From Escherichia coli (GTDB taxonomy: Bacteria > Pseudomonadota > Gammaproteobacteria > Enterobacterales > Enterobacteriaceae), in assembly GCF_050920415.1 (NCBI RefSeq), contig NZ_CP169309.1: 64,000 bases of DNA; one strand, given 5' to 3'. A model generated the notes under the pieces. It was not told the origin of the DNA. It saw only the letters and a program-made list of their open reading frames with translations, and made no database searches. The first letter of the stretch is position 1; each line of letters starts with the position of its first letter. Positions 21,594-22,106 of this stretch are shown here, piece after piece. A program made the translations under genes and the position numbers.

Positions 21594-22106
21594 TTAGCTG
21601 AGGCGTTGAGGGCCAGCACGGATGCCTTGCGCCTGGCTTATCCAGACGGGCGTGCTGAATTTTGCTTGCGGGGTAAAATGCGCATAATCAATGCGATAAC
21701 CCTTTTCAGACGGCGTGCCTTCCTGGGTCAACAGCGCGCTGAGCGTATCCAGTAATGCAAGATGTTGCGCCTGAAGAGGCAAAGATTCTTCAGCAACGGG
21801 CAGCGTTTGCGGTGCCATTGCGAAGGAAAGATGACGGATTACCGTGCGAATGGCATGTTGATGCCAGTAATCAACGGAATAGTTCGAATTCGGGCGGCGC
21901 GTGTTCGCTTCCAGCAAGGCCAATTGACCAAAGTTAACTTTGGCTGAAGGCTCGTGGTTGCGGGTTGTCGCTTTTGCGGGCGCGTTTGGTTCGGCGGCGT
22001 TGCTGAGCGCAGGCAAACCTAAACTCGCCGCGACCATCCCTAATAAGAGATGCGGCCAGAAGTAGCGTTTACCAAACTGTCGCCAGCGCGTCAGTATTCC
22101 ACTCAC
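21594..22106 (-). CDS. secM: Secretion monitor SecM (regulatory leader of secA)
   Basis: ORF 21594..22259 over-extended; real start is GTG at 22106 (reverse complement CAC at 22104-22106 checked), giving 170 aa beginning [22 protein letters not shown]. Confidence 0.92.
21609..21659 (-). other. SecM translation-arrest motif [17 protein letters not shown] (codons 150-166)
   Basis: Exact arrest peptide present 4 codons before the secM stop, 61 bp upstream of secA. Confidence 0.9.

Follow-up and report, generated by a model that had tools for sequence, protein, structure and literature searches.

The secM-secA locus in the Escherichia coli window analyzed here (a stretch of 64,000 nucleotides) is almost certainly a canonical, intact translational control unit. 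Gene identity, the start codon, the integrity of the arrest motif, and synteny are established, and the coordinates of all features are collected in Table 1. The secM frame runs on the minus strand from a GTG at 22106-22104 to a TAA at 21596-21594, and translation of 21594-22106 gives 170 sense codons, as the initial annotation had reported. The GTG that it had read as CAC on the plus strand was confirmed base for base. The secM stop ends at 21594 and the secA ATG begins at 21532, both on the minus strand, so that secM lies directly upstream of secA; the spacer between them, 21533-21593, does measure 61 nt. The chromosome of E. coli MFDS1022581 matches the 941 nt around the gene (21400-22340) at 100% identity. 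The RefSeq secM of that genome (WP_000014320.1, ‘secA translation cis-regulator SecM’) maps exactly to 22106-21594, and the annotated gene order is lpxC-secM-secA. Of 5426 complete E. coli genomes, 5424 carry this lpxC-secM-secA stretch as a single copy, and for three of these matches the record is labelled as a plasmid.

Table 1. Features of the secM-secA locus, with positions in the window, strand, and basis or remarks
Feature	Position	Strand	Basis or remarks
secM coding sequence (170 codons + TAA)	21594..22106	-	translation, RefSeq, Pfam PF06558, NCBIfam NF002799, K-12 b0097
secA, regulated gene, 901 aa	18827..21532	-	open reading frame list and RefSeq annotation of the identical genome
secM-secA intergenic spacer, 61 nt	21533..21593	-	
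secM GTG start codon	22104..22106	-	direct read; same start in K-12 and RefSeq; orthologue comparison
N-terminal signal sequence region, residues 1-37	21996..22106	-	inspection of the translation; identical to K-12 here
Arrest motif F150-S-T-P-V-W155-I156-S-Q-A-Q-G161-I162-R163-A164-G165-P166	21609..21659	-	translation
Inferred arrest site: Gly165 GGC 21614-21612 (P site), Pro166 CCU 21611-21609 (A site)	21609..21614	-	
Tail Q167-R168-L169-S170 + TAA	21594..21608	-	S170 = AGC 21599-21597; K-12 T170 = ACC
Predicted helix 2, 5' arm CUCAACGCCUC	21600..21610	-	second base of codon 166 to codon 169; MFE and centroid folds
Predicted helix 2, 3' arm GGGGCGUUUGAG	21541..21552	-	contains the secA Shine-Dalgarno GAG 21543-21541
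Predicted small G+C hairpin CUCCGC-AAC-GCGGGG	21549..21563	-	constraint folds; nested in the K-12 MFE

Two classes of SecM, long and short, have been described (PMC10987492). The protein encoded in the window matches the Pfam SecM family PF06558 with E=4e-58 (195.9 bits against a cutoff of 25) and the NCBIfam equivalog model NF002799 with 231.2 bits against a cutoff of 100, the latter covering residues 3-169. The models of the small type score below their curated cutoffs (20.9 vs 26.1 bits for PF10818 and 25.9 vs 45 bits for NF038363). By its sequence, the SecM studied here belongs to the long class. [quoted passage not shown] The M. succiniciproducens protein arrests on an RGSP motif (PMC10987492).

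Comparison with the reference gene of K-12 MG1655 (b0097, NP_414639.2; secretion monitor, secA translation cis-regulator) gives the same 513-nt frame of 170 codons with the same GTG, in the shared position lpxC-secM-secA-mutT. The arrest motif is identical, the spacer is of equal length (61 nt), and the same two-helix RNA architecture is predicted for both loci. The proteins are identical at 169 of 170 residues, the sole change being T170S. The coding sequences differ by eight synonymous changes and by one non-synonymous change (codon 170, ACC to AGC), and the spacer carries a single substitution, a G at 21565 where K-12 has an A, in a predicted loop position. Both T170S and the spacer change spare the known functional residues. 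An exact 81-nt piece, which runs from the arrest codons through the tail and includes most of the spacer, is found in 605 of 5421 E. coli genomes, and the allele is for this reason regarded, on sequence grounds, as a common natural E. coli variant.

The switch might nevertheless be weakened or set differently by the two differences. Two extra base pairs are predicted with the AGC codon, and they account for part of a predicted gain in stability of ~4 kcal/mol over the K-12 RNA (−40.4 vs −36.6 kcal/mol). Residue 170, however, follows the arrest point and lies outside the motif, the spacer change falls in a predicted loop, and the exact allele is carried by the 605 complete genomes mentioned above. 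Moreover, Ser170 is the rule across the Enterobacteriaceae genera, in which QRLS is the majority tail, while the Thr170 of K-12 is the minority state. A functionally altered switch is therefore considered exceedingly unlikely. The idea of a decayed or altered secM copy has been rejected, as S170 is the majority residue across species and the allele is common.

The choice of start codon called for a check, since the mechanical open reading frame extends further upstream. The minus strand around the start reads ...gggatggcaataacGTGagtgga..., and the longer read through it is ...gggatggcaataacGTGagtggaatactg..., with the GTG at 22106-22104. To compare orthologues, a degenerate DNA pattern for FxxxxWIxxxxGIRAGP was run against one genome per bacterial species (298 Gb), which returned 86 loci. 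One of these is a chance match in a 19-codon open reading frame of a Glaciimonas MAG. The other 85 are from Enterobacteriaceae and all encode a SecM-type C-terminal tail, with a secA-like start downstream in 80. The start codon was compared in the 75 loci whose 5' end is complete, this locus included, which represent ~20 Enterobacteriaceae genera. The codon homologous to the secM GTG is GTG in 73 of the 75 and TTG in the remaining two; ATG occurs in none.

Initiation of SecM could instead be placed upstream, at TTG 22259 or at an in-frame GTG at 22178 (giving 221 or 194 residues), or downstream, at the first in-frame ATG, codon 24. The mechanical open reading frame does continue without a stop up to TTG 22259 (221 aa), and the sequence before the secM GTG, GGGAUGG, is no strong Shine-Dalgarno sequence of the AGGAGG type. 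Against an upstream start, the extension is not conserved: the open stretch before the homologous start codon ranges from 0 to 81 codons among the 75 loci, no alternative start exists between the upstream stop and this codon in 40 of them, and in 16 an in-frame stop directly abuts it. The family models also begin at residue 3 of the 170-residue protein. Downstream of the start codon, 72 of the 75 loci have their first in-frame ATG at codon 24. Residues 1-23 are almost invariant among the orthologues while their synonymous sites vary, which indicates that these residues are translated and excludes a start at Met24. With K-12 and RefSeq both annotating the GTG, the alternative starts are barely conceivable, and upstream TTG/GTG and Met24 initiation have been rejected on the comparative evidence from the 75 orthologous loci. 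Annotation and comparison together make the GTG start secure, and the stop codons placed directly before it in 16 of the 75 loci contribute to this.

The secM start site was reportedly set in a primary paper by Sarker, Rudd and Oliver in 2000. No explicit statement of a GUG start of secM was found in the literature covered, which did not extend to the older primary papers; according to its legend, a Ribo-RET supplementary figure indicates the annotated start and stop codons of secM together with the known arrest site. The presence of a non-AUG start in all 75 loci from ~20 genera, next to synonymous sites that are free to vary, suggests that weak initiation has been selected. If this is true, weak secM initiation could limit the queuing of ribosomes behind the stalled ribosome or cap the flux of SecM. 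A four-codon mini-ORF (ATG GCA ATA ACG TGA, 22103-22117 on the minus strand) overlaps the secM GTG out of frame through the sequence GTGA. Its ATG is shared by the Escherichia loci and Citrobacter sedlakii and is absent from the other genera; the overlap is probably incidental. A promoter and terminator scan of 21400-22450 returned nothing above shuffle expectation.

By inspection, the signal region of SecM consists of a basic N-region, RWRQFGKRY (R7, R9, K13, and R14), a 16-residue hydrophobic core, and the sequence SNA/A. The 1-37 boundary used for this region is that of the SecM(delta 1-37) construct (PMC6993859), and the signal sequence has been described as Sec-dependent in work cited in PMC10987492 (its ref. 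21). The SecM arrest motif is F150xxxxWIxxxxGIRAGP166, in which Arg163 and Pro166 matter most (PMC10987492, PMC10951299). All nine motif residues (F150, W155, I156, G161, I162, R163, A164, G165, and P166) are present here and identical to K-12, in agreement with the initial annotation of a complete motif ahead of secA. No substitution is found at Arg163 or Pro166, and T170S sits four residues past the arrest point. In the stalled state, peptidyl-tRNA(Gly165) occupies the P site and Pro166-tRNA the A site (PMC10951299). Several ribosome complexes in the PDB contain a SecM nascent chain ending at G165 (9vvi/9xwo with residues 1-165, 8qoa, and 3jbu/3jbv). From the identity of residues 1-169 to K-12, we infer that the ribosome would arrest at Gly165/Pro166 and be released by SecA-dependent export.

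Exactly four codons separate Pro166 from the stop codon in every orthologue with a complete 3' end (loci L003-L088). The invariant length of this tail and its conserved sequence are probably explained by a constraint on the RNA, as the tail codons overlap the 5' arm of the helix that is predicted to sequester the secA Shine-Dalgarno sequence.

These elements can be combined into the following mechanism. The GTG-initiated secM would yield a secretory protein of 170 residues. Once Gly165 has reached the P site and Pro166-tRNA has entered the A site, the FxxxxWIxxxxGIRAGP segment held in the tunnel would block peptide-bond formation and stall the ribosome. On the free mRNA, secM codons 166-169 (CUCAACGCCUC) would pair with GGGGCGUUUGAG, masking the secA Shine-Dalgarno sequence within it and repressing secA initiation. 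A stalled ribosome would cover the 5' arm of this helix (helix 2), so that the helix could not form and the secA ribosome-binding site would be exposed. Pulling on the signal sequence by SecA/SecYEG would release the stall, and the duration of the stall, hence SecA synthesis, would report export capacity. The published model of arrest and Shine-Dalgarno unmasking agrees with the predicted folds (PMC10987492, PMC6993859, PMC10951299), and it is from the published K-12 work that we infer the stalling, the release by export, and the effect on SecA synthesis. The initial annotation had described the circuit as fully preserved. The near-identity to the experimentally studied K-12 locus supports this description, which for the present allele is a reading of its sequence.

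The free fold of 21533-21660 (minus strand) has a predicted energy of −40.4 kcal/mol (z = −3.8), a stability reached by 0 of 200 dinucleotide shuffles. The secA Shine-Dalgarno GAG (21543-21541) lies 8 nt before the ATG, and its predicted partners are secM codons 166-167. For the free RNA, the partition function gives it an unpaired probability of 0.00 and assigns 99% of its pairing to secM codons 165-170. Helix 2 and the overall fold recur in the K-12 sequence, and including the first secA codons leaves the predicted structure as before. The initial annotation had secA translation controlled through the 61-bp spacer. The predicted sequestration of the Shine-Dalgarno sequence is in line with this, but the helix responsible begins within secM, whose codons 166-169 form its 5' arm. 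A further hairpin, helix 1, is predicted at 21613-21658 (minus strand) within the arrest-motif codons. Across species only its GGAU/AUCC core recurs; this core is dictated by the codons for W-I and I-R, and its conservation is therefore uninformative on RNA structure.

In a ribosome with Gly165 at the P site, helix 2 has its 5' arm at +5 to +15, counted from the first P-site base. These positions are inside or at the entrance of the ribosomal mRNA channel, and the arrested ribosome would therefore have to hold the predicted helix open. The calculated cost of opening the secA ribosome-binding site falls from 5.8 to 3.5 kcal/mol with a ribosome footprint to +11, and to 2.6 kcal/mol with a footprint to +15. 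In these constraint folds, which contain only 15 nt of secA, the GAG re-pairs weakly with the first secA codons and its probability of being unpaired barely rises. The pairing of the secA Shine-Dalgarno sequence with secM codons 166-169 is a thermodynamic prediction, and the secM arm of this predicted stem-loop overlaps the footprint of a ribosome stalled at Gly165/Pro166.

The orthologues add a comparative view of this helix. Among 80 distinct orthologues, helix 2 pairing is kept in 90.9% of cells, compared with 30–54% in slid registers. All measures of helix 2 covariation equal those of the shuffles in the same 80 orthologues, because both arms are simply conserved. An RNAalifold consensus of 81 orthologous 3'-secM/spacer sequences (−7.3 kcal/mol) did not recover helix 2 and contained no compensatory pairs, and an Rfam scan of 21300-22400 at E<=1 matched no family, hence no curated model of the secM-secA stem-loop. 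The gain in opening energy on stalling has a median of 0.7 kcal/mol across the 80 orthologues and is negative in some. The in silico support for unmasking of the Shine-Dalgarno sequence on stalling is good for this sequence and weak as a family-wide test. The comparative data are compatible with helix 2 and do not amount to proof, which comes from the published K-12 genetics.

A different route to secA translation would be translational coupling, in which ribosomes re-initiate from the secM stop independently of arrest-driven unmasking. Such a scheme would fit the modest difference in opening of the ribosome-binding site (2.3–3.2 kcal/mol here), the lack of covariation support for helix 2, and the secM stop that always lies exactly four codons past Pro166. 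A gap of 61 nt is, however, long for termination-reinitiation coupling, and the predicted ensemble of the free mRNA leaves no part of the GAG unpaired. In K-12, according to Murakami et al. 2004 as cited in PMC5821084 and to PMC10987492, arrest is required for basal as well as regulated SecA expression, and mutations of the arrest motif are lethal unless secA is supplied in trans. Coupling as the main route is accordingly judged highly unlikely, and unmasking of the Shine-Dalgarno sequence by the arrested ribosome is the preferred explanation.

The spacer, which ranges from 57 to 68 nt among the orthologues, holds a second predicted structure. The small G+C hairpin adjoins the secA Shine-Dalgarno sequence on its 5' side, and the GGGG tract of its 3' arm is common to the distal part of helix 2, so that the two structures would partly compete. 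A hairpin is predicted at this position in 52 of 53 distinct orthologous versions. Its stems differ (CUCCGC/GCGGGG, UGCCC/GGGCG, CUGCC/GGUAG, CUACC/GGUAG, CUUCGC/GCGAGG, and CUCCGA/UCGGGG) and yet pair, which points to compensatory changes; at alignment pair 117-124 both sides are changed in 11 orthologous hairpin sequences. The hairpin may act as an anti-sequestor after stalling, as a stabilizer of a multibranch structure, or as a site of SecA autoregulation. That the non-AUG start of secM is under selection and that the spacer hairpin is kept by compensatory changes, with perhaps both undescribed before, is a joint proposal that we regard as possible and rather doubtful.

The same logic of a monitoring substrate is found in VemP (Vibrio, secDF2), MifM (Bacillus, yidC2), and ApdA/ApdP/ApcA (RAPP/RAPG). 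In monitoring substrates, stalling of the nascent chain opens a stem-loop that hides the Shine-Dalgarno sequence, and export or insertion lifts the stall (PMC10987492, PMC7897499). The sequences of these proteins are unrelated to SecM, and their arrest motifs and target genes differ. A RAPP-type motif (R-A-P-P or R-A-P-G) is not present in the SecM C-terminus of the window, which has R163-A164-G165-P166 instead.

The whole window is colinear with the K-12 region at 65.7–129.9 kb, in reverse orientation and at 95–97% identity. The setA gene (K-12 77621-78799, between sgrS/sgrT and leuD) is absent, and sgrS/sgrT abuts leuD at a junction at ~50952-50993. A single unbroken match to this junction is found in 2145 of the 5426 complete E. 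coli genomes, and on this sequence evidence the absence of setA is a common presence/absence polymorphism. A BLAST comparison with K-12 also shows offset self-matches of ~80% identity at 3250-4115, inside aceF, which we take to be the tandem lipoyl-domain repeats of the pyruvate dehydrogenase E2 subunit.

The secM-secA switch described here is already known, and the locus is a textbook secretion monitor in an ordinary, common allele. The comparative by-products of the analysis refine a known system and do not constitute a discovery. The non-ATG start of secM is one that gene callers should keep. Users of SecM as a stalling tool and those who model the circuit may find the by-products useful, namely the strictly conserved non-AUG start, the invariant four-codon tail, and the predicted covarying spacer hairpin, which overlaps helix 2.
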